From positions 1 to 63,305 of the forward strand of contig CADBEI010000014.1 in assembly GCA_902793695.1 (NCBI GenBank): 63,305 nt of DNA, given 5' to 3'. The DNA is from an uncultured Pseudomonadota bacterium (GTDB lineage: Bacteria; Pseudomonadota; Alphaproteobacteria; RF32; CAG-239). The notes beneath the pieces are model-generated. The model ran no database searches. It saw only the letters and a list, made by a program, of their open reading frames with translations, and was not told the origin of the DNA. This document shows, in pieces, positions 4,991-63,305 of the stretch; the first letter of the stretch is position 1, and every line of letters begins with the position of its first letter. A program made the translations under genes and the position numbers.

Positions 4991-6856
4991 ATGAAGTTTG
5001 GTAAAAGCGCTGTTATTTGGGTTTTGGTTCTTATCGGTCTTACGGCCTTTTTCAGTATGGCAGAAAAACGGACGATGACGGCCGCGACCGAAAGTGTGTC
5101 GTTTTCTGATTTTATGGATAACGTCAAGAATAAACGGGTTACAAATGTTTCCATCAGCGGGGCGGAAATATCGGGTATGACCGCCGATGGTAAAAAGTTT
5201 ACGACTTATGCGCCATACAGTCCGACTACGGTGGATACGTTGTTGGAAAACAATGTTAAAGTTGAGGCAAAACCGCAAGATACATCAACCGAAACTTTTT
5301 GGAGCGTTGTTATTTCATGGCTGCCGATGTTGCTTTTGGTCGGTGTATGGGTGTTTTTTATGCGTCAGGCCAGTGCCGGCAATAACAAAGCGTTGAGTTT
5401 CGGTAAATCACGTGCCAGATTAATAGAAAACAATAAGAAAGTTACATTTGCCGATGTGGCCGGTGCCGATGAATCCAAGCAGGAATTGGAGGAAATAATC
5501 GACTTTTTGAAAGACCCGATTAAGTTTCAGCGTTTGGGCGGAAAAATTCCGAAGGGTGTGTTGTTGGTGGGCCCTCCGGGAACCGGTAAAACCTTGCTGG
5601 CCAAGGCGGTTGCCGGCGAGGCCGATGTGCCGTTTTTCTCGATTTCCGGCTCCGATTTTGTGGAAATGTTTGTCGGTGTGGGCGCTTCGCGTGTACGTGA
5701 TATGTTTGAACAGGCCAAGAAAAACGCCCCGTGCATTTTGTTTATTGATGAAATTGATGCGGTCGGGCGTCATCGCGGTGCCGGTTTGGGCGGCGGTAAT
5801 GACGAGCGTGAGCAAACACTTAATCAACTGTTGGTGGAAATGGACGGCTTTGAACCGAATGAAAACGTTATTCTGATTGCAGCCACCAACCGTCCGGACG
5901 TGTTGGATCCGGCGTTGTTGCGACCGGGGCGTTTTGACCGTCAGGTTGTGGTTAGCAATCCGGATATTAAAGGGCGTGAAGCTATTCTTCATGTTCATGC
6001 ACGCAAAGTTCCGCTGGCTAAAGATGTGGATTTATCGGTAATTGCTCGCGGTACTCCGGGGTTTTCCGGTGCCGATTTGGCCAATTTGGTTAATGAAGCG
6101 GCTTTGTTGGCGGCGCGTCGTAATAAGCGCAAAGTGACGGCGCAAGACTTTGATAATGCCAAAGATAAAGTGTTGATGGGTAACGAACGCAAATCAATGG
6201 CAATGGATGAAGAAGAAAAGAAACTGACGGCTTATCACGAAGCCGGTCACGCCATTTGCTCGTTGCATGTACCGGAAACCGATCCTATTCACAAGGCGAC
6301 GATTATTCCGCGGGGACGTGCTCTCGGTATGGTGCAACAGTTGCCGGAAAAAGACCAATATTCGTACACTCGCGCCAAAATGTTATCGCGTTTGGTGATA
6401 TGTATGGGCGGCCGTGCCAGCGAGGAGTTGAAGTTTGGTTATGATAAAGTTACATCGGGCGCTTCGGCCGATATTTCGGCAGCAACAAACTTGGCTCGCT
6501 CCATGGTTACAGAATGGGGTATGAGTGATTTGTTGGGGCCGGTTTTGTATGCCGAAAATTCCAATGAAGTGTTTTTGGGCCGTGCCGTTACGCAAAACAA
6601 AAATATGAGTGAAGAAACTGCACGCTTGGTAGATGCCGAAATCAAACGTCTTTTGACCGAGGCACACGCACAAGCTACGGAAATTTTGAAAAAATATGAC
6701 AAAGAACTCGAAACATTGGCGCAAGCTCTGATTGAGTATGAAACGCTCTCCGGCGATGAAATCAAAGACGTTATTGCCGGAAAGTCGCTTAATCGCTCGG
6801 AGTATTCTCCGGTTCCGCCGGAAAAGCAGACCAAAGTTTCACTACCGGAAGTATAA
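4991..6856 (+). CDS. ftsH: ATP-dependent zinc metalloprotease FtsH
   Basis: Walker A GPPGTGKT, Walker [32 protein letters not shown], zinc site HEAGHA, N-terminal TM segments. Confidence 0.97.
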
Positions 6857-6866
6857 GAGGTTAAAA

Positions 6867-7748
6867 ATGGATTTTAAAGAACTGGGATTATCCGAAAAAA
6901 CAATACAAGCCGTTACGGAAGCCGGAATTATCACGCCTACAACGGTGCAAGCCGATGTTATACCGTCGATTTTGCATGGCAAAGATGTGTTTACGATTGC
7001 TCCGGCCGGTTGTGGCAAAACATATTCGTATGTGTTGCCGCTGATTGATATTATTGCCGATAAAAAAGCGCATAATATTTTGATTATTACTTCGGGCGCG
7101 CAGGCTTCGGTTACCGTTTCCGACAGATTCGCCGTGTTTAACAAATACCACGAAATTACGGCCGGCAATGTTGACGATGTCGAAGAAAATATCGATGATG
7201 AAGCCAATGTGGTTATTGCATCGCCGAAACTGCTGTCCGATTTGTTGGATGAAGATAAAATCGACTTGTCGCAAACCGATGTTTTGGTGGTTGATGATAT
7301 CAATCTGATTAAAAAAACGCATCAACTGGAACAGTTGGAAAAAGTTTTAGCGGTTTTGCCGTCGGAAAAACAAAATATCGTTTATACCAATCGTCGTTCC
7401 AAAGAAACTCAGGCATTGTTGGATAAGATTTTGCAAACACCGGAAGAAATAAAAATCAACAAAGATGAGGAGTTGAAAGCAGGAGCTGAAGAAAACGCAT
7501 CTGCCGTTGCCGATACCCCGAAAGAGGTTATGCCGAAAGAAGTGTCGCAGCCGATACCGACACCACAGGCAGAGCCAAAAAAAGAAAAGGCTCGCAAAGA
7601 ATCCAAAACCGAGCCGAAAAAAGTTTTGCCGCGCCGCGAAAACAGTAAAGACGCCGAAGCTTTGAATTTGGTAAAAAGATACCATACTTTCGGACGCAAT
7701 ACACCGGCTTTTCTGCTGACGGCCACCGAACTGGTTGAAGATAATTAA
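6867..7748 (+). CDS. degenerate DEAD-box helicase N-domain-only protein with K/E/P-rich tail
   Basis: Q-motif 'PTTVQ' and Walker A 'APAGCGKT' are intact. Motif Ia (TSGAQA), Ib (SPKLL), II (VDDI for DEAD) and III (YTN for SAT) are degenerate. There is no RecA domain 2. RBS agagg precedes the ATG at 6867. Confidence 0.7.
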   Translation: MDFKELGLSEKTIQAVTEAGIITPTTVQADVIPSILHGKDVFTIAPAGCGKTYSYVLPLIDIIADKKAHNILIITSGAQASVTVSDRFAVFNKYHEITAGNVDDVEENIDDEANVVIASPKLLSDLLDEDKIDLSQTDVLVVDDINLIKKTHQLEQLEKVLAVLPSEKQNIVYTNRRSKETQALLDKILQTPEEIKINKDEELKAGAEENASAVADTPKEVMPKEVSQPIPTPQAEPKKEKARKESKTEPKKVLPRRENSKDAEALNLVKRYHTFGRNTPAFLLTATELVEDN

Positions 7749-13232: not shown

Positions 13233-14981
13233 TTATTGCGGTAAGGATTTTACGCTGAAAAACAGCGGTAAAATCTCGTATTTGCCTTGATGATAATACA
13301 CATAAAGCGGAATGGCGTCGCGTCCGTAAGACGAAAGCGCAGTTCCCAAATCTTCCTGATGTTCGGTTAAATCGGCCACAAATAATGCCACATTATTTTC
13401 TTGCACAAATTCCTTAAATCTTTGACTTTTCAAAATAAATCTCTCATTAAACTGGCAAGTCAAACACCAATCGGCGGTAAAGTCTACAAAAATATTGCGC
13501 CCTTGCTCGTTAAGTTCGGCAATTTTCTCGGCATCAAACGGTTGCCAATCAAGTTCTGTGGTGTCGGCGGCATAAGTATCGGTCATAATTTGCGTATAAA
13601 AAATGGAACCAAGCCAAATCGCCGTAATCAGAATCGGCACGGAGAGAATGATTTTCAGCTTTTGCATCCAAGCTCCCGGCTTCGGCAAAATTCGGTGCAA
13701 AGCCTGCGGAAACATCTCAATCAGAGCATAGGGCAGGGCATAACCGAGCGCTAATGCCGTAAAAATTGCCATAACTTCGGCGTTGGTGCGCATAAAGGCA
13801 TAGCCGATGGCCGCCCCCATAAACGGACCGGCACACGGACTGGCTACCAATACCGCAAAAAATCCGGTGGTAAATTCGTTAAAGCCGGACAGACGATGAA
13901 TGGTATTGCCTGCAAAATTCGGAAAATGCAGAATGTCGGCCATAAATAAAAACAACAGCAAAAATATTATGGACATAATCCCCACAAACCACGATGATTG
14001 CAGTTGAAAACCCCAGCCGATGTTATTGCCTTCGGTTTTCAGCCAAAGCATAATCACTGCCAGAACAATAAATGACAACAGCACTCCGAGCGTGTAGAAA
14101 ACGGCATTTTTATAAGGCGTTATTCCGGTTTGCGGCTGTTTCAAAAGCGTAAATATTTTCAGGCTCAAAATCGGAAACACGCAAGGCATGGCATTGAGAA
14201 TAATGCCGCCGATAAAAGCCAAAATAATCATATACAGCAGAGTATCCGTGAGCGTGCTTTTATATTCTATATCCGCCAAATAAGCATTATTCGGAGTAAT
14301 AATCAGAGCCTGTTTGAGTTGTTGCGGCTTATCCGATTGCCATTTAACGCTTATACCTTCGGCATTCGGCTCGGTTTCAATACTCATTTCATCAATAATA
14401 TCTTTTTTCGTCGGGGCAAAATAGAGAGGTGTTTGCGCATCCATATTCAACTGTAAGCGATTTTCACCGAGCGGGCTGGTTAAGGTTATTTTTTGCGGAA
14501 AAGTAGCTTGTGCCCGTTGTTGCATTTCCAGCCATTGTACATCAGGCGATGCCGCGATTTCCGCCATCTTAAAGGTTAGAGATTCCGGCTTGCAAACATC
14601 ATTACATTCCACAAAGCTGAAGGTTATTTCCGCCTTATCGAGATTATCGACCTGCAAAGCATAATAAGCAGTGTTTTCATACAGATATTCGTGCATAATG
14701 TCATAGATAGTGCGCGCCACCGGAATTGATTGAGCCGTTACTTCAATTTTGGAATTGATAGCCGTGACTTCGGTAGGTTGACCTACATCGCCGGGATTGC
14801 TCCACGAAATATGCCAATCCGGCTGCATCACAAACTCGGCCAACACCTTATCTTCGCCGTTATGATAAAGGCGGATGGTGGTATTTTCCGTACTTTTAAT
14901 CGCGTCATCTGCGTATGCGGCAGAAAAACTCAACAAACCATATAGAAGCGCAAAAACCAGACATATCTTATTTTTCATCAT
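13233..14981 (-). CDS. dsbD: DsbD/ScsB-family thiol:disulfide interchange (protein-disulfide reductase) protein
   Basis: N-domain 'ECNDVCKP', membrane cysteines 'MPCVFP' and 'ASPCAGP', C-terminal thioredoxin 'WCLTCQ'. Confidence 0.85.
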   Translation of the reverse strand: MMKNKICLVFALLYGLLSFSAAYADDAIKSTENTTIRLYHNGEDKVLAEFVMQPDWHISWSNPGDVGQPTEVTAINSKIEVTAQSIPVARTIYDIMHEYLYENTAYYALQVDNLDKAEITFSFVECNDVCKPESLTFKMAEIAASPDVQWLEMQQRAQATFPQKITLTSPLGENRLQLNMDAQTPLYFAPTKKDIIDEMSIETEPNAEGISVKWQSDKPQQLKQALIITPNNAYLADIEYKSTLTDTLLYMIILAFIGGIILNAMPCVFPILSLKIFTLLKQPQTGITPYKNAVFYTLGVLLSFIVLAVIMLWLKTEGNNIGWGFQLQSSWFVGIMSIIFLLLFLFMADILHFPNFAGNTIHRLSGFNEFTTGFFAVLVASPCAGPFMGAAIGYAFMRTNAEVMAIFTALALGYALPYALIEMFPQALHRILPKPGAWMQKLKIILSVPILITAIWLGSIFYTQIMTDTYAADTTELDWQPFDAEKIAELNEQGRNIFVDFTADWCLTCQFNERFILKSQRFKEFVQENNVALFVADLTEHQEDLGTALSSYGRDAIPLYVYYHQGKYEILPLFFSVKSLPQ

Positions 14982-56291: not shown

Positions 56292-56396
56292 TTTTTTGAG
56301 GTCGGCTGTTGACAGTCGGCCTTAAAAAATGTTGCAAAATAAATAAAAAGGGTTATTATCAAAAAAAAGTTTTTGACGCGTTCAAAGGAGAAAAAT

Positions 56397-57551
56397 ATGA
56401 AAAAAAGTTTATTATTCGCGTTTGTTATGCTGTTTTCGGCACAAGCTAACGCTTCGTTGCCGGAATTGATTGACGGAGTTAAGAATAACAATAAAGAGGC
56501 GGTTTTACAGCTGTTAAAAGCAGGGGAAAATGTTAATGCCGTAAATGAACAGGGCAATTCCGCTTTGCACTATGCCGTGGCTTTGAATAATGCCGAAATG
56601 GCAGAGATTCTGTTGCGTTACGGCGCCGATATGAATATCAGCAATGCACAAGGTTGGACTCCTTTGAAAATTGTGGAAAAAAAGAAAGTTGAAGATGTGG
56701 CAGCAGTTTTACACAATGCATTGGCGAAAAATTCTGTTCCTGTTCCGGTTTCGGCACCTGCGCCTGTTCCGGCGGTTGAAGCGGCACCTGCTCCTGTGGC
56801 ACCTGCGCCTGTTCCGGCGGTTGAAGCGGCACCTGCTCCTGTGGCCCCTGCACCTGTTCCGGCGGTTGAAGCGGCACCGGCATCAGTGGAAAACAGCAAT
56901 ATTACCAATGCGGAAACCGCTCGTTTATACGCGCTCATAGAAAGTGCAAAGACCGCTGTGGTTGAGGCTAAAAAACAACAGGAAGAACTTGCTTTGCAAA
57001 ATGAAAAATTACAAAAAACAACAGAATTATTGCAAATGCAAAACAATGTTTTAACTAATCGCCTTTTGAAATATGAGGAAGAAGAACGTGCCGCCGAAGA
57101 AGCTGCGGCAAAAGCTAAAAAAGAAGCTGAAGAAGCCGCCGAAAAGGCTAAAAAAGCCGCCGAAGAAGCAAAGGCAAAGGCAGCGGCGCGCAAAGCCGAG
57201 TTAGAGAAAAACGCTCCGAAACCGGTAATAAAAAAACCGGTGTTCAAACCGCGTAAATCTGACCTTAACAGCAATATTTATGCCGGCGATGAAGAAATTG
57301 TTTATTGCTTGAGTTATCTTGGTAACGGTGAAAATACCGGAATGCGCAATGCCGCCGGTTTTTTTGCCGCTTCTGCCGGAATTAACGAGGCACGTTATAA
57401 TCAAATTGTACAAATGTCTGATTCGTTCTTCAATCAATCTGCACCTGAAAGTTTGCAAAAACGCAGTGATGATTGTGCCAAAATCATTACCCCGACGGAT
57501 ATAAATAAGCAAAATCAGATTATTCGCAGTTTAAACAACTCAATCAGATAA
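56397..57551 (+). CDS. secreted ankyrin-repeat protein with Pro/Ala tandem repeats and a coiled coil
   Basis: Signal peptide MKKSLLFAFVMLFSAQANA. ANK repeats ('GNSALHYAVALNNAEMAEILLRYGADMN'). About 2.8 copies of 'APAPVPAVEAAPAPV' (see the repeat feature at 56754..56882). E/A/K coiled coil. Confidence 0.85.
   Translation: MKKSLLFAFVMLFSAQANASLPELIDGVKNNNKEAVLQLLKAGENVNAVNEQGNSALHYAVALNNAEMAEILLRYGADMNISNAQGWTPLKIVEKKKVEDVAAVLHNALAKNSVPVPVSAPAPVPAVEAAPAPVAPAPVPAVEAAPAPVAPAPVPAVEAAPASVENSNITNAETARLYALIESAKTAVVEAKKQQEELALQNEKLQKTTELLQMQNNVLTNRLLKYEEEERAAEEAAAKAKKEAEEAAEKAKKAAEEAKAKAAARKAELEKNAPKPVIKKPVFKPRKSDLNSNIYAGDEEIVYCLSYLGNGENTGMRNAAGFFAASAGINEARYNQIVQMSDSFFNQSAPESLQKRSDDCAKIITPTDINKQNQIIRSLNNSIR
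56754..56882 (+). repeat. 45-bp in-frame tandem repeat, about 2.8 copies
   Basis: The unit gcacctgcgcctgttccggcggttgaagcggcacctgctcctgtg is repeated at 56754, 56799 and 56844. Confidence 0.9.
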
Positions 57552-57616: not shown

Positions 57617-57716
57617 ACTTTTACAGGTGGATAAAACTTAAAAAAAACTTCCTATTTTATGCCGTGTTTGCTATATTTAATCAGTTTTATTTATAAGTAA
57701 ATTGAAGAGGTATGAA

Positions 57717-60536
57717 GTGACTGAAGAAATTCAAGAAACACAGGAAGTTAGTGTGGTTAAAACCGATAATATCGCCCCGACCATGATTTCGGAAGAAATG
57801 CGCCGCAGCTATTTGGATTATGCCATGAGCGTAATCGTTTCGCGTGCGTTGCCGGATGCGCGTGACGGTATGAAGCCGGTGCATCGCCGTATTATTTACG
57901 GAATGTATGAAAACGGCTATGATTCAACCAAACCTTATCGTAAATCGGCGCGTATCGTCGGCGATGTTATGGGTAAATATCACCCGCACGGCGACAGTTC
58001 CATTTATGAAGCAATGGTGCGTATGGCACAACCGTTTTCTATGCGGGTGACGCTGGTTGACGGACAGGGTAACTTCGGCTCGATGGATGGCGACGGTGCG
58101 GCGGCCATGCGTTATACCGAGGCGCGTTTGGCTAAGGTTTCCGCTTGTTTGACCGACAACTTGGATGAAGATACCGTTGACTTTATGCCGAACTATGACG
58201 AATCTTTGCAAGAACCGACGGTGTTGCCGGCACGTTTCCCTAATTTATTGGTAAACGGCGGCAGCGGTATTGCCGTAGGTATGGCTACCAATATTCCGCC
58301 ACATAATTTGGGCGAAGTAATCGACGCTTGTTGCGCTTATATTGATAATCCGGAAATCAGCGTGGAAGAGTTAATCAGCATTGTTCCTGGGCCGGATTTT
58401 CCGACCGGCGGTCTGATTTTGGGTTACGGCGGTGCCAAACAGGCATATTTGACCGGCCGCGGCTCAATTATGATGCGCGCCAAATGCTCGATTGAAGAAA
58501 TTCGCAAAGATAAAGAAGCTATTATCGTGCACGAAGTGCCGTATCAGGTAAACAAAGCCAACTTGGTGGCGCATATTGCCGAACTGGTGAAAGACAAGCG
58601 CATTGAGGGAATCTCCGATATCCGTGATGAGTCCGACCGTCAGGGTGTGCGCATCGTGATTGAGATCAAACGCGATTTTCAAGCCGATGTGATTTTGAAT
58701 CAGCTTTATAAATACACCGAATTGCAAACCAGTTTCGGTATGAATATGCTTGCCATCAACGGCGGTCGTCCGATGATGATGAATCTGCGCGATATTATCT
58801 CCACCTTTATCGAGTTTCGCGAAGAAGTAATTCGTCGTCGCACTGTGTTCCGCTTGAATAAAGCTCGCAACCGCGCGCACGTTTTGGTTGGTTTGGCAAT
58901 TGCCGTGGAAAATCTCGATCCGGTGATTGAATTGATTAAAAACGCACCGACGCCGCAAGACGCTCGTGAACAATTGGTCAGCCGCGAATGGCCGGCCGGT
59001 ACAATTGAAGACTGGGTTAAATTGATTGATGAGCCGGACAGAAAGGTTGAAAACGGTGTTTACAGAATGTCGGAAGACCAAGCTCGCGCGATTTTGGATT
59101 TGAAATTGCAACGCTTGACCGGTTTGGAACGCGATAAAATTCACGAAGAATTGGTGGATTTGGGTGCGGCAATCAAAGAGTTTCTGTCGATTCTTTCAAG
59201 CCGTGAAAAACTTTACGGCATTATGCGTGACGAGTTGGTGGCGGTTAAAGATGAATACGCCACTCCGCGTATGACCGAAATTCAAGACATTGAATATAAT
59301 CAGGATATTGAATCGCTGATTCAGCGTGAAGAAATGGTAGTTACCGTGACCGAAGAAGGTTATATCAAACGCGTACCGCTGAACGCTTATAAAGCGCAAA
59401 AACGCGGCGGTAAGGGTAAATCAGGTATGACCACCAAAGACGAGGATTTTGTGACGCGTCTGTTTGTAGCCAGTACACACACCCCGGTATTGTTCTTTTC
59501 CAGCCGCGGTATTGTGTATAAGATGAAGGTTTATAAATTGCCGCTCGGTTCGCCGACTTCAAAAGGTAAGCCGTTCATCAATTTGTTGCCGTTGCAAAAT
59601 GGCGAAAACATTACCGCCATTATGAAATTGCCGGAGAATGAGGAAGAGTGCAAGGGTGTTTCGATTGCTTTTGCTACCGCCAGCGGTAACATTCGTCGCA
59701 ACAGCCTGATGGACTTTGTCAACGTTCAATCTAACGGTAAGATTGCAATGAAACTTGACGAAGGCGATAAGCTGATTAATGTTGCCATGTGTGATGAAAA
59801 CAACGATATTATGTTGGCAACGCGCCAAGGTAAATGTATTCGCTTCCCTGTAACCGATGTCCGCGTGTTTGTCGGCCGTAACTCCACCGGCGTGCGCGGT
59901 ATTAAGTTGGCAAAGGGCGATGAAGTTATCTCAATGACCATGCTTAAGCATATTAAAGCCCCGATTGAAGAACGCGATGAGTATTTGAAAGTCTCCGGTG
60001 CCATGAAACGCATTGATGCCGAAAGTGGCGAAACCAGCTGCATTACGGCTGATCAGACCGGCTTATTGAACCTGCTCAGCTTGGAGAAGTTTGAAGAAAT
60101 GCAAAAGATGGAAGAATTCATCTTAACCGTGACCGTAACCGGCTACGGCAAGCGTTCTTCTTCGTATGAATATCGCGTGACCGGTCGTGGCGGTTCGGGT
60201 ATTGCCAATATGGAAATGTCGCCGCGCAATAAGGAAGTTGTCAGCTCGTTCCCGATTACCGAAGATAAGGATATTATGATGGTAACCGACGGCGGTAAGC
60301 TTATCAGAATGCCGGTTGATGACATTCGTATTGCCGGTCGTAAGACGCAGGGCGTGATTTTGTTCCGTACTGCCGAAAATGAGAACGTTGTTTCGGTAAC
60401 CAAACTTGATGCCGATGAAGGTACCGACGAGGAAATCGATGAGGAGAACGACAACGTGATTGATACCGAGGCCGAGAATGCGGAAATCGCAGCCGAGGCA
60501 ATCAGCGAGCCGCGTACCGACGAGGCCGACGCCTAA
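57717..60536 (+). CDS. gyrA: DNA gyrase subunit A
   Basis: '[28 protein letters not shown]', '[11 protein letters not shown]', '[22 protein letters not shown]'. The GTG at 57717 follows gaagagg by 6 nt. The TTG at 57702 is an alternative start. Confidence 0.96.
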
Positions 60537-60560
60537 AAACGGCTGAAATTAATTCATAAG

Positions 60561-60595
60561 GCGCCTTGCACCTCAAAAGTGCAGGGCGTTTGTGT
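60561..60595 (+). terminator. intrinsic terminator after gyrA
   Basis: 10-bp stem cgccttgcac/gtgcagggcg followed by tttgtgt. Confidence 0.7.
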
Positions 60596-60722
60596 ATAGA
60601 TGATATTAAGGGCAGAGCTTTTCAGGCGTTCCTCCCTATAAATCAATACCTGTTAAGGATAATCCTTTGTTGACTTTCACAATATATAATTTATTATAAT
60701 TACAATTTTAGGGAGCATTAAA

Positions 60723-61169
60723 ATGAAAAAGTTGGTTTTGATTTTAGGACTAGTATTGAGTTTAGGCGCAAATGCTCGGGCAGATGATAATGTAAATAAA
60801 CAAGAGTTTGTTAATCCGATTTTTTATCAACCGTTAGAACCATTGAGTAGCACTGTGGGGTGGACTTATTTGACACCTAAAACAATTGATTTTAGAACAC
60901 CATTAGATAAAAATCTTGTTGATAGCACAGGGGAATGTGAACTTGTTGAAAATAAACAAGACCACATTACCCTGTTGTGCGATGTTACATGGCGTAACGA
61001 AAAAAAGAAAGAATATTACACATATGTAATAAAAGGTTTATTTATGCCAGATTGCCTACGCATATTAGAATACAATTATCGAAAAATAGAAGATTTTTCC
61101 GAAAATGAAATGCATGCAGCAAAATACTGTGTTACTCCTCCTGATTACGTTCCGTCAGAATCGGATTGA
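60723..61169 (+). CDS. small secreted Cys-containing protein, putative immunity protein (copy 1)
   Basis: Signal peptide MKKLVLILGLVLSLGANA. Paralogous to 61945..62400 ('NPIFYQPLEP' vs 'NPLFYRPLEA'; 'ELVENKQDHITLLCDV' vs 'NLIENEHDHVKYDCYV'). Its 3' end overlaps the toxin-like gene. Confidence 0.6.
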   Translation: MKKLVLILGLVLSLGANARADDNVNKQEFVNPIFYQPLEPLSSTVGWTYLTPKTIDFRTPLDKNLVDSTGECELVENKQDHITLLCDVTWRNEKKKEYYTYVIKGLFMPDCLRILEYNYRKIEDFSENEMHAAKYCVTPPDYVPSESD

Positions 61170-61894
61170 GCGCGCCGTATCTCTTGTCCAATTATTACGT
61201 CTTTGAGCCACATCCCTACGATTGACATTTTCAACAATGCCGTTGACATCGCGGTTTCTGATTGCACGGTATAAGTTTGGCCAATTATGCCTATTTACTC
61301 CCCCTTTGACATTATACTGAATATCTAATAAAATTTCTTTCAATGGTAATGGAAAATTATCAAAATCAGAAAATTCTCCACGCAAATGCGCTAAATCATT
61401 ATTCATGTGATTTTGGGCTAAACCGCGTGCTTCAGCATCAGATATGCGAATGTTTGTATAGGGCACAAAATTCTCTGCTGTTGTATTCCTATTAACATAA
61501 TTTCCATTAGCATCTTTTTCATCACTAAGTTGACGCATACGATTATATGCTTCTCGTTTCTGCGCCTCTGTCGCCGGAACAATTTTCTGTGTGGTTGTCT
61601 GGAATTCTGTTACTTTCGGCTTTGGTGACGGAATAGGGATAAGTGGAACATTGTGCACTTGGTTATCGGATTTTTCTGTTTCCGGTAATTTCAAAAATTG
61701 CACCGGAGTATCAGTTGTCATATTACCTTGTTCAGTGATATAACTTCCTTCGGGTATTTTCTTATCTTTGTTTGCATTTTCCGGCAAAATGCCGCTGACA
61801 TCTATAATCATCGGCTTATCGGCATATCTTTCCGGTTTATACGGTTCAGCCCAGCATCGACAGTTATAATCTTCCCCCGGATGCCCGTCGGTTT
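61155..61894 (-). CDS. orphan toxin C-terminal cassette, degenerate T4-lysozyme-like
   Basis: The frame is open from the stop at 61895-61897. It encodes 'KTDGHPGEDYNCRCWAEPYKPERYADKPMIIDVSG' with no ATG before 61811. The C-lobe 'ILLDIQYNVKGGVN...' is homologous to 62387..63305. The N-lobe catalytic motif is degraded. Confidence 0.55.
61812..61894 (-). repeat. conserved pre-toxin junction, copy 1
   Basis: By eye about 80-85% nucleotide identity to 63221..63305. Both encode YNCRCWAEPYKPERY..KP.I.DVSG. Confidence 0.8.
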
Positions 61895-61944
61895 TTTATT
61901 GTATTTTAACGAAACTATGCTATATAAACTCCAGAGGTATAAAA

Positions 61945-62400
61945 ATGAAAAAGTTGGTGTTGATTTTAGGAGTGTTTGCGGTGATTGCAGGTTCAGTTGC
62001 TGCATATTTCGCTTACAATAAGCCTAAAATCATTCTACCAAAGCCGATAGAACAAGGATTCAAAAATCCTTTATTCTATCGACCGCTTGAAGCTTACGGT
62101 CGTACTTCATGGCATACTTTTTTAACACCCTACAGTATTACTTTAACCCCGCCTTTTGATGAAGCAAAAAAAACATCTAAGGTTATCGCTGAATCATACT
62201 CATGTAATCTAATTGAAAATGAACATGACCACGTTAAATATGACTGCTACGTATGTGCAGAATTTATAACCTATCAACCTTGTCACCGCGAATGTCAGAA
62301 TTTTATTGTAAAGCGCTACGATGAATACGGTAAAGGTTATATAATCAAGAAAGATGACTGCACGGGCAACTTAGAACACTTTATTATTAAAATGAACTAA
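61945..62400 (+). CDS. small membrane-anchored/secreted Cys-rich protein, putative immunity protein (copy 2)
   Basis: The first 27 nt are nearly identical to 60723 (atgaaaaagttggtNttgattttagga). Its 3' end overlaps the toxin gene by 14 nt. Confidence 0.6.
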   Translation: MKKLVLILGVFAVIAGSVAAYFAYNKPKIILPKPIEQGFKNPLFYRPLEAYGRTSWHTFLTPYSITLTPPFDEAKKTSKVIAESYSCNLIENEHDHVKYDCYVCAEFITYQPCHRECQNFIVKRYDEYGKGYIIKKDDCTGNLEHFIIKMN

Positions 62401-63305
62401 CCATATTTTCGTATGCTCTTAAAATTCTTTCTGCAGTTTTAACATTTCTGTCGTTGTCCACGTCTTTCCTGTGAGACTGTTTTAACATTTCAGTAAAATA
62501 CTCCTTATTGTGTGTTTGCATAAAGCCATCGTATGCATCAATGAATTTACCAAAAGAGTTTATTCCACCTCTCACATTATATTGAATATCAAATGCAGCT
62601 TCCTTAAAACTTAATGGCTGATTATCAAAGTCGGTAAAGGTTCTTTTTAGTACATCATAATCATTCTGCAAGTGTGTAAAGGTGTGGTAATCAACCTCTT
62701 TTTGGCTTATCCTTATATTGGTATATTTAGTATAATAACCGGCAGTATAATTAAATGGTCCATGGTCTTTCTTCTTACTTTCCGGCCATCTCGCATATTC
62801 TAATGGGTGCTCGCGTTTAAACTTTTGCACTTCATCATATTCTTTTTTTAATCTTTCTCGTTGTCTTCCAAGTTCATCATACATAGCTTTGACTTCATCT
62901 TCGGTTGCCGGTCTGTTTCCTATCATCCAATTTACGGATTTGAATTGTTCCCAGCGGTTGATATTATTACCTCTGCCTGTTGTAATTAGTCCTTTAGAAT
63001 CAAGATAAGGATGTCTTTTCTCATCTTCAGATTCCACAATTACGTCAGCCATATGTCGCAGCAACTTTTCCTCTTCAGGTGAGCGGAATTTTACTTCGCG
63101 ATGTGTGTATGCAGAATTTGAAGTATACGCAGCATCGCTTGCCACATTTGCCTTATCATTGGCGGCATATTGTGGAAAGTTTTTGTTGTTTAAATCAACC
63201 GGTTTTAACTCCTTAAACATATCAAGTCCGCTGACGTCTACAATTACCGGCTTATTCTTATATCTTTCCGGTTTATATGGCTCCGCCCAGCACCGACAAT
63301 TATAA
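62387..63305 (-). CDS. T4-lysozyme-like (GH24-type) toxin C-terminus of a larger protein continuing beyond the window
   Basis: 'ESEDEKRHPYLDSKGLITTGRG' has Glu/Asp/Thr with the same spacing as T4 lysozyme E11/D20/T26. C-lobe 'AAFDIQYNVRGGINSF...RNVKTAERILRAY'. The frame is open through 63305 and encodes YNCRCWAEPYKPERYKNKPVIVDVSG. Confidence 0.7.
   Translation of the reverse strand, partial: YNCRCWAEPYKPERYKNKPVIVDVSGLDMFKELKPVDLNNKNFPQYAANDKANVASDAAYTSNSAYTHREVKFRSPEEEKLLRHMADVIVESEDEKRHPYLDSKGLITTGRGNNINRWEQFKSVNWMIGNRPATEDEVKAMYDELGRQRERLKKEYDEVQKFKREHPLEYARWPESKKKDHGPFNYTAGYYTKYTNIRISQKEVDYHTFTHLQNDYDVLKRTFTDFDNQPLSFKEAAFDIQYNVRGGINSFGKFIDAYDGFMQTHNKEYFTEMLKQSHRKDVDNDRNVKTAERILRAYENMVSSF
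63221..63305 (-). repeat. conserved pre-toxin junction, copy 2
   Basis: See 61812..61894. Confidence 0.8.

Follow-up and report, generated by a model that had tools for sequence, protein, structure and literature searches.

MuF polymorphic toxins have been described from temperate phages (Jamet et al. 2017, PMC5576092; Zhang et al. 2012, PMC3482391; Apk2 and Bxa, PMC11699363). The published members are defined by their prophage head-module context and by a long N-terminal region (PMC5576092, PMC3482391, PMC11699363). Phage capsids are their presumed vehicle, and what they do biologically has yet to be established (PMC11699363). We describe here a locus of an uncultured rumen alphaproteobacterium that lies downstream of gyrA, at the end of a stretch of 63,305 nucleotides (nt) analysed as a whole (contig CADBEI010000014.1, hereafter the window). 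It comprises two toxin-like genes on the minus strand, each paired with a small plus-strand gene, and is in our judgement likely to be a chromosomal polymorphic-toxin locus belonging to a short branch of the MuF toxins, called mini-MuF below.

The locus shares with the known MuF toxins a PF04233 motif that ends in H..NCRC..P and directly precedes a variable toxin domain, a small neighbouring open reading frame (ORF) that is a candidate immunity gene, and cargo common to other polymorphic toxin families (VgrG3-C, Tlde1, Colicin E5). As in those toxins, a C-terminal extension of at least 100 aa carries the variable toxin domain: here the extension is ~280 aa long, and six C-terminal domain types occur on the same N-terminal module. 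However, only half of the MuF domain is present, in a module of ~115 aa, while the N-terminal MuF region of Bxa has 322 residues (PMC11699363). Housekeeping genes surround the loci, not a head-morphogenesis module with portal and terminase genes. The cargo, in a Gram-negative alphaproteobacterial host, consists mostly of peptidoglycan hydrolases; the word lysozyme is absent from the main text of Jamet et al. 2017 (PMC5576092). The putative immunity gene is convergent with the toxin gene, overlaps its 3' end and encodes an exported protein, and orphan cassettes stand in tandem. New with respect to known MuF toxins are thus the minimal N-terminal module, the non-prophage context, the peptidoglycan-targeting cargo, a new exported family of candidate immunity proteins, the convergent cassettes and an element that splits the gene.

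The junction and the N-terminal module

The window is an internal piece of the ENA scaffold STEW19-1_SAMEA5383953_METAG-scaffold_309 (118,364 nt), which runs 749 nt past the window end; these nucleotides were added to the analysis. The last 12,110 nt of the scaffold are referred to as L001, and a window coordinate equals the L001 coordinate plus 51,944.

The two minus-strand ORFs, at 61155-61895 and 62387-63304, are homologous (BLASTP E 6e-31) and have a junction in common, as had been proposed in an earlier sequence-only reading of this DNA. Their identity is concentrated at this junction (YNCRCWAEPYKPERY..DVSG), a direct repeat of 103 nt with 82% identity in DNA, and in the C-terminal ~75 residues (YTNIRIS..DFDN.PL..KE...DIQYNV.GG.N). 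The junction alone matches phrog_324 (head morphogenesis) at 9.5e-7, over residues 3-43 of the proximal copy. Past the window end, and starting ~500 nt beyond it, an ORF of 130 aa (L001 11464-11856, minus strand) provides the N-terminal module; its residues 66-103 match Phage_Mu_F positions 57-95. Joined to the junction in silico, it gives a PF04233 match of 43.3 bits (profile positions 57-110 of 112; gathering cut-off 29.6 bits), a score that needs this joining, the domain being split here by an inserted element of 163 nt. Intact homologues carry PF04233 un-joined: P0038 (419 aa) and P0040 (415 aa) consist of the N-terminal module, PPEGGHPGEDYNCRC and the same toxin, with 82-88% identity, and the distal cassette is 88% identical to the C-terminus of P0038. 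At the sequence level, the junction is verified as the C-terminal end of Phage_Mu_F (PF04233), a link that the sequence-only reading had proposed on the basis of the H..NCRC..P motif. The ~115-aa module holds only the C-terminal half of the domain (profile positions ~56-111), and the cassette junction of ~100 nt encodes the last ~25 residues of the MuF core (HPGEDYNCRCWAEPYKPERY).

The sequence-only reading had also taken the distal ORF for the tail of a large delivery protein of Rhs, CdiA or MafB type continuing past the window. What speaks for this is that the ORF is open at the window edge, and nothing more. Beyond that edge come stop codons, the 163-nt element and the 130-aa ORF, which has a start codon of its own and is preceded by AT-rich sequence. 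The distal frame stops before KRHPGEDYNCRC, intact relatives reach at most ~420 aa, and no Rhs, CdiA, MafB, type VI (T6SS) or type VII secretion system markers or prophage genes were found within 50 kb. These findings refute the explanation, to which we give practically no chance.

An exhaustive HMMER search with an N-terminal-module-only protein (P0003) as query gave 3981 hits. The whole module, starting near the protein's own N-terminus, is found in about 20 cluster representatives of 180-491 aa total length, while many other listed matches have the ~55-residue core only, 25-100 residues from the N-terminus. This core reads Y.W.T..D.KVR..HA...G.IF.W..PP.GGHPGE.YNCRC. Full-length relatives measure 372-419 aa. 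Complete family members (~380-420 aa) have the ~115-aa module followed by the toxin, and the C-terminal domains found on the same module or core are a GH24-/pesticin-like lysozyme, GH108+PG_binding_3, VgrG3-like_C, Tlde1, a Colicin_E5 RNase and DUF6861. Intact genes with a convergent partner lie among metabolic, restriction-modification and regulatory genes on a 417-kb scaffold (L035) and on human-gut contigs (L037-L039). The L006 locus follows rplJ-rplL and the L017 locus, with the same split architecture as here, stands beside ftsK. No portal, terminase or capsid gene was found near the L006, L017, L035 and L037 loci or in the window, and a scan of IMG/VR for the N-terminal module gave no close relative. 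The 50 kb upstream of the array contain no phage, gene transfer agent or secretion-system genes.

The only secretion system seen near any locus is a two-partner secretion pair in L035 (1-5319; a protein of 4205 aa and a ShlB/POTRA transporter), ~5 kb from an intact mini-MuF toxin gene and probably unrelated.

MuF belongs to the head proteins of phages, its fusion in phages to domains acting on the cell wall has been described (PMC5512222), and nearly all C-terminal domains on the mini-MuF module act on peptidoglycan. On these grounds the genes might be remnants of phage lysis or virion-associated lysin genes, in which a MuF-lysin fusion would aid DNA injection and the small proteins would be lysis accessories. 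We hold this to be very unlikely. Phage structural, lysis or integrase genes were found neither near the examined loci nor in IMG/VR, and the MuF domain is reduced to its C-terminal half. A repeated junction precedes orphan cassettes in tandem, partners change with the toxin type, and Colicin_E5 and Tlde1 domains occur on the same core. Tandem orphan cassettes, partner change and cargo domains of this kind are hallmarks of polymorphic toxins (PMC3482391).

A polymorphic-toxin locus of this type would represent a widespread chromosomal branch of MuF proteins, cut down to a ~55-residue core and a short leader and equipped with periplasm-acting cargo and exported immunity proteins. Outside phages the core would be either a portable packaging or secretion tag working in trans, or a domain with a different function. 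The mini-MuF proteins provide a minimal system in which the question of delivery becomes testable.

Putative lysozyme-like toxins and their exported partners

The distal toxin cassette (62387-63305, minus strand) reads YNCRCWAEPYKPERYKNKPVIVDVSG... and its coding sequence (CDS) runs 16 nt past the window, to L001 11377. It is made of the junction, (HPGED)YNCRCWAEPYKPERYKNKPVIVDVSG, a linker, LDMFKEL..PQYAANDKANVASDA, and a GH24/T4-lysozyme-like domain. The catalytic pattern E-x8-D-x5-T is kept (SEDEKRHPYLDSKGLITTGRG), with E65, D74 and T80 in the numbering from the M at 63220 (codons near 63028, 63001 and 62983). In an alignment of 64 sequences E65, Y72, D74, G77, T80 and G84 are nearly invariant. 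An AlphaFold2 model of the distal toxin has a pLDDT (predicted local distance difference test) of 84.5, and its best Foldseek matches in the PDB are T4 lysozyme or T4 gp5 (all of the top 8, nearly all of the top 50; probability up to 0.99, template modelling (TM) score on the target up to 0.56, E 0.046). The sequence profile of the toxin family reaches P21/RrrD-type lysozymes (E 0.003-0.017). Modelling thus gives good support to a two-lobed T4-lysozyme fold of the distal domain. The distal toxin is intact, and a single exact excision or splicing event would suffice for its expression.

The proximal cassette (61155-61895, minus strand) has a stop codon directly before the junction (Q, stop, KTDGHPGEDYNCRCWAEPYKPERYADKPMIIDVSG...; junction at ~61791-61895). 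After the junction comes a non-homologous Pro-rich stretch and then only the C-terminal lobe of the lysozyme-like domain. The copy aligns only from VPATEAQ on; the catalytic lobe, with its E-x8-D-x5-T and G.G signatures, is missing and has been replaced by NQVHNVPLIPIPSPKPKVT. Because of this replacement the proximal toxin is regarded as a relic, probably a decayed orphan. Of the two lysozyme-fold toxins announced by the sequence-only reading, the distal one therefore stands (Foldseek T4 lysozyme, probability 0.99) while the proximal one lacks the catalytic lobe. In Pfam searches the proximal copy matches Pesticin (PF16754) with E 1.6e-4 and 22.1 bits, below the gathering threshold of 25.8, and the distal copy gives no PF16754 match; some relatives carry a precomputed PF16754 match, and annotations of relatives include GH24 and PF00959. 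Pfam matches to HALZ, Int_N and Ldh_2 were at chance level and were rejected. None of the four proteins (two toxins, two small proteins) matched in NCBIfam.

The proximal-type lysozyme-like domain also occurs in a large series of 403-aa proteins (P0078-P0128) exemplified by P0091 (403 aa, on 40 contigs). These are the closest full-length relatives of the proximal toxin and have an unrelated N/Q-rich N-terminus of ~200 aa with no Pfam match. The toxin domain is therefore common to another delivery type, and the N/Q-rich region perhaps serves to deliver the same toxin, as a separate module not yet characterised.

Each toxin gene is accompanied by a small plus-strand gene that overlaps its 3' end by 14-15 nt in convergent orientation. 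The proximal immunity-like gene (60723-61169) encodes 148 aa with a cleavable-looking signal peptide (MKKLVLILGLVLSLGANARA) and the family motif FxNPIFYxPLE..C.L.EN..DH; it is unchanged on four independent contigs. The distal one (61945-62400) encodes 151 aa, with an N-terminal hydrophobic anchor or uncleaved signal, a beta-rich exported domain and the conserved residues Cys87, Cys101 and Cys139. The two proteins are paralogues (E 4e-18) and both start with MKKLVLILG and a hydrophobic N-terminus and have conserved Cys residues, in agreement with the paired exported Cys proteins of the sequence-only reading. A profile search yielded 159 relatives of ~145-165 aa, none with a Pfam match; the few whose source is named come from metagenome-assembled genomes (MAGs) of Alphaproteobacteria. 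Residues F39, N41, F44, P47, C87, E91, N92 and C101 are invariant in the family. The AlphaFold2 model of the distal protein (pLDDT 79) shows an N-terminal helix (signal peptide or anchor) followed by a beta-rich domain. The small proteins have no match in Pfam, NCBIfam or PHROGs and belong, as already suspected, to no recognised family. We regard them as a new family of candidate lysozyme inhibitors.

The nature of the partner follows that of the toxin. In L017 and L035 the toxins are of GH24 type and adjoin homologous small partners; unrelated ones accompany the VgrG3-like toxin in L006 and the toxin in L037. Such a change of partner with toxin type is the switching that would be expected of cognate immunity.

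Muramidase toxins acting in the periplasm include pesticin with its Pim protein (Yersinia pestis), Tse3-Tsi3 and VgrG3-TsiV3. In pesticin- and T6SS-type systems a gene beside that of the toxin gives the producer its immunity, through a small protein that is periplasmic or a lipoprotein. The mini-MuF cassettes likewise combine a T4-lysozyme-like or related domain, toxic on this comparison, with an adjacent gene for a small, presumably periplasmic, immunity protein. They differ in lacking VgrG, PAAR and any domain for FyuA binding or translocation, and in that the immunity family is unrelated in sequence and has no convincing fold match.

Every cassette has the same layout: a junction, a linker and a peptidoglycan-hydrolase domain on the minus strand, converging with a plus-strand gene for an exported small protein. 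The 103-nt junction repeat, the stop codon before the proximal junction and one immunity-like gene for each toxin are those of an array with orphan cassettes, as had been anticipated, and the same arrangement is found in L017. A second conserved block covers the promoter, ribosome-binding site (RBS) and signal-peptide region of the immunity-like genes (TTTAACGAAACTATGCTATATAAACTCCAGAGGTATAAAA and ATGAAAAAGTTGGTGTTGATTTTAGGA). It consists of ~40 nt of upstream sequence and the first ~27 nt of the CDS (TTTAAC..TATATAAA..AGAGGT..ATGAAAAAGTTGGT.TTGATTTTAGGA) and is located at 61905-61971 and 60683-60749 in the window (plus strand), at 5446-5512 in L017, at 11521-11587 in L035 (minus strand) and also in L006 and L037. 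The block is nearly identical in L017 and L035 and remains recognisable before immunity genes whose mature proteins are unrelated (L006, L037 and a 271-aa gene of L017); as direct repeat D4 it shows 94% identity. The distal block starts (at 61905) 9 nt from the ORF start of the proximal cassette (61895). Since toxin and immunity genes converge, leader block and junction bracket each cassette, and the two may act as homology arms for cassette exchange.

The CdiA, Rhs and MafB arrays are similar in this respect: a pre-toxin junction is repeated before promoter-less and start-less orphan modules that have their own immunity genes (PMC3482391), and displacement of cassettes is expected through recombination at the junction (PMC3482391). 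In the present array, however, the second conserved block (immunity promoter, RBS and signal peptide) flanks the other side of the cassette, owing to the convergence of toxin and immunity genes. In addition the delivery module is tiny and the expressed copy is itself interrupted. Two conserved blocks bracketing each cassette make a clean model of cassette exchange.

In the mechanism proposed here, homologous recombination at the two blocks would swap a toxin-immunity pair onto the single N-terminal module. The toxins would hydrolyse peptidoglycan in the periplasm of competitors, and the small exported proteins would be periplasmic inhibitors of the toxins. The immunity genes would be transcribed independently, so that the cell would be protected whether or not the toxin is made. 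Both muramidase toxicity and neutralisation in the periplasm are predictions from the sequences. As for delivery, whatever its route, we infer that export would probably proceed through binding of the MuF core to a phage-like particle or to another carrier encoded elsewhere, the least supported step of the scheme.

Both immunity-like genes are intact and have upstream regions of their own. A promoter-like site precedes the proximal one: TTGACT, a 16-nt spacer and TATTAT (L001 8726-8753, window 60670-60697), at the start of a leader with RBS that extends over 60670-60722 on the plus strand. Promoter-like sites are not more numerous in the region than expected by chance, and only the position of this one is suggestive. 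As assembled, both toxin cassettes of the window are without an attached start codon and N-terminal module, because the 163-nt element separates the module from the distal cassette; independent assemblies (L002, L004, L017) reproduce this situation. With toxin genes that are unjoined or relic and immunity-like genes that are intact, the current function of these 2.7 kb is most likely immunity together with a silent or switchable toxin reservoir.

Several observations weigh against a polymorphic-toxin locus. With no cassette attached to the N-terminal module the locus may make no toxin at all. The individual E-values of the toxin assignment are weak (Foldseek 0.046, PDB profile 0.003) and the Pesticin match is under the Pfam gathering score. 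Portal, terminase or T6SS genes were not seen near any locus examined, which leaves the role of a MuF core outside phages unexplained. The case for immunity is built on linkage of the genes, the presence of an export signal and the co-variation of partner and toxin; the small proteins bear no likeness to PliC/MliC, PliI, PliG, Pim or Tsi3, and Foldseek gave weak lipocalin-like matches only (TM ~0.35, E >= 0.16). Finally, the convergent orientation of toxin and immunity genes is unlike that of classical polymorphic toxin loci.

The 163-nt element

The element that splits the MuF gene occupies L001 11378-11540, 17-179 nt past the window end, on the minus strand (CGAGGATAAAAACAACC..GGTTGTTTTTACCGCAAGCGGCGAAG..GAGTGACCGAAGCG..GCAAGA). 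In L001 the sequence NWHVPPDG is followed by exactly 163 nt and then by GA CAT CCG GGG GAG GAT TAT AAT TGT; stop codons are present just upstream of KRHPGEDYNCRC, 16 codons upstream of the window edge. The intact L035 allele reads GAG GGC GGG CAT CCG, against GGCG/CGAGGAT...GCAAGA/GGCAT (or /GACAT) in interrupted genes (slashes mark the element boundaries). Exact removal of the element restores the frame and the intact sequence, with the joint CCACCGGATGGCGGACATCCGGGGGAGG and no target duplication, and removal of 163-164 nt restores the consensus PPDGGHPGEDYNCRC at two different insertion sites. The same element, 163-164 nt in length, interrupts diverged MuF-N genes in L006 (10281-10443), L013, L016, L017 (~6790-6952) and L019. 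The second site (..KVR/) is occupied in L008 and L012, with two copies in one gene (6901-7064 and 7125-end in L008). Insertion is always 3' of ..GCG at both MuF sites (GGCG^GGCAT and CGCG^AGAAG, the caret marking the point of insertion) and at most of the tRNA-linked sites described below. In 6 of 37 MuF-N protein clusters the protein ends in the element-encoded peptide ARIKTT[IV]APVVFTASGEVLL... The window proper contains no other copy detectable by pattern search or covariance model, and a scan of IMG/VR for the element gave no match.

The MuF-N allele of L018 (~1500-1680) and L028 (~14590-14770) has lost the exon that separates the two sites (GKHAEREG..PPEGG) and retains one element. Recombination between twin copies of the element would produce this deletion.

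Our leading guess, a tentative one, is that the element is a non-autonomous DNA insertion (e.g. PATE-like and mobilised by an HUH/Y1 transposase) that has silenced the toxin gene. Precise excision may reverse the silencing and give a phase-variable toxin while immunity stays on. PATEs, which derive from IS200/IS605, insert exactly and without target duplication beside a short constant motif, and the element is likewise found 3' of a fixed short motif with no target duplication. Near-identical copies in diverged genes, two copies per gene in L008 and L012, the deletion between them in L018 and L028, a subterminal hairpin at the left end, the existence of an IS200-type tnpA in the clade (L010) and the clusters ending in an element-encoded peptide all speak for an insertion. 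Unlike in PATEs, however, the ends of the element are dissimilar, its copy number is low and no transposase is linked, tnpA being found in one related contig only. The left hairpin is conserved, the right-hand one is not like it, and the 3' hairpin varies between copies. A species genome has 1-2 exact copies of the core, no transposase is encoded in the 63-kb window, and the other copies occupy a stereotyped tRNA-linked context or resemble small RNAs (sRNAs) instead of being spread over random GCG sites.

Conservation of the element exceeds that of the coding DNA around it. It is 87-100% identical between loci, against 45-91% for the flanking 150 nt, and between L001 and L017 all 163 of 163 positions are identical while the flanks show 82% and 91%; the element is conserved beyond the level of synonymous sites. 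The consensus structure has 34 pairs; 97.7% of its cells are paired, and compensatory changes occur in 8 of the pairs. The observed values were reached in none of 500 shuffles, and slid controls collapse. The toxin ORFs downstream of the element are intact in all interrupted loci that were read through (L001, L006, L017).

The element might be removed at the RNA level, as a mini-intron or by processing and ligation, or be bypassed by the ribosome, which would yield a MuF-N-lysozyme toxin of ~416 aa from the distal cassette. Removal from the RNA predicts a possible joint CCGGATGGCG/GACATCCGGG in the transcript. Consistent with this are the restoration of frame and consensus at two sites when exactly 163-164 nt are taken out, the intact downstream toxin ORFs, the constant sense orientation of the element, its far stronger conservation than that of the flanking coding DNA, its covariation-supported structure, and a free-standing copy with a promoter-like site and terminator. 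As with mobile introns of phage genes, the interruption is sense-oriented, lies in a phage-derived gene at conserved codons, and its removal restores the ORF. However, neither size nor boundaries fit any intron class and no maturase is linked. A search of Rfam at E <= 10 gave no match, group I and group II introns included. Group I introns follow an exon ending in U and end in G, and group II introns have GUGYG...AY; the boundaries found here (exon..GCG / CGAGGAT...GCAAGA / GG) fit neither. To our knowledge, 163 nt is shorter than any self-splicing intron. All three frames need two shifts to be read through, neither an intact allele nor a spliced product could be found for this strain, and the allele of L018 and L028 has lost the exon between the sites, a loss against which an intron gives no protection. 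Removal at the RNA level thus appears unlikely, more so than a DNA insertion.

Simple translational read-through or frameshifting across the element was rejected: one frame is open but exits out of the toxin frame. A tmRNA was also considered. The element has tmRNA-like features, namely a tag-like ASGEVLL[IM]SKLA followed by a stop codon in the MuF-N frame, a GCA resume codon, and tRNA-like ends flanking other copies. Neither ARAGORN nor Rfam identified a tmRNA, and the stop codon varies between copies; tandem and multiple copies, and flanks resembling tRNA-Met or tRNA-Trp and not tRNA-Ala, also speak against it, and it was rejected as a classification.

Scans of the sequence collection found the core only in contigs of rumen Alphaproteobacteria, and a covariance model recovered 39 copies among the loci collected. 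The copies outside MuF genes (L009, L010, L011, L014, L015, L020-L027 and L029-L034) are linked to tRNA genes and often stand in tandem. Their order is stereotyped: tRNA-Met or tRNA-Trp, a terminator, an antisense-like copy of the tRNA 3' half, the module, a direct copy of the tRNA 3' end with CCA, and a terminator. As in tRNA-linked small RNAs, a structured RNA has tRNA-like flanks, and the module looks like an undescribed small-RNA family of rumen Alphaproteobacteria. In L026 (3650-3820, minus strand) the module stands alone between an upstream promoter-like site and a downstream terminator, for which reason the element is probably made as RNA. No reverse transcriptase, integrase or TnpB gene is recurrently adjacent to the tRNA-linked copies.

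A gene for an IS200-type Y1 transposase (tnpA; L010 53-370, plus strand) lies directly beside a tandem module pair; tblastn with it found no counterpart at any other element locus.

The element could be a new class of mobile or regulatory RNA. In a broader reading, which we find rather doubtful, it would be a new kind of mobile structured RNA present in three settings (free-standing, tRNA-linked and inserted in MuF genes) and would serve, as a mini-intron or a precisely excising element, as a removable switch that gates the toxin while immunity is constitutive; with the phage-independent mini-MuF module and its peptidoglycan hydrolases it would then make up a toxin system not described before, complete with a control element.

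Chromosomal surroundings

The gyrA gene (ORF 57702-60536) encodes the DNA_topoisoIV and DNA_gyraseA_C domains. Downstream of it the sequence turns AT-rich, as the sequence-only reading had remarked: GC content falls from ~0.48-0.50 in gyrA to 0.33-0.40 past window position 60500. The proximal border of the array is a terminator-like hairpin of gyrA, read from the sequence at 60560-60596 on the plus strand (GCGCCTTGCAC..GTGCAGGGCGT, then a T-rich tail); it is not among the outputs of a simple terminator scan. The 50 kb upstream of the array hold housekeeping genes only (aspS, rnd, ribosomal protein genes, uvrD, gltX and others). Where relatives of the proteins are named, their sources are MAGs from rumen and gut that bear the label Alphaproteobacteria or, in one case, Rhodospirillaceae.

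Directly upstream of gyrA, a plus-strand gene (56373-57551) encodes an ankyrin-repeat protein with a signal peptide. It has three tandem repeats of the APAPVPAVEAAPAPV type and a long Lys/Glu/Ala-rich stretch resembling a coiled coil. Free-living bacteria do not usually have such a protein, which hints at life in association with a host or a protist.

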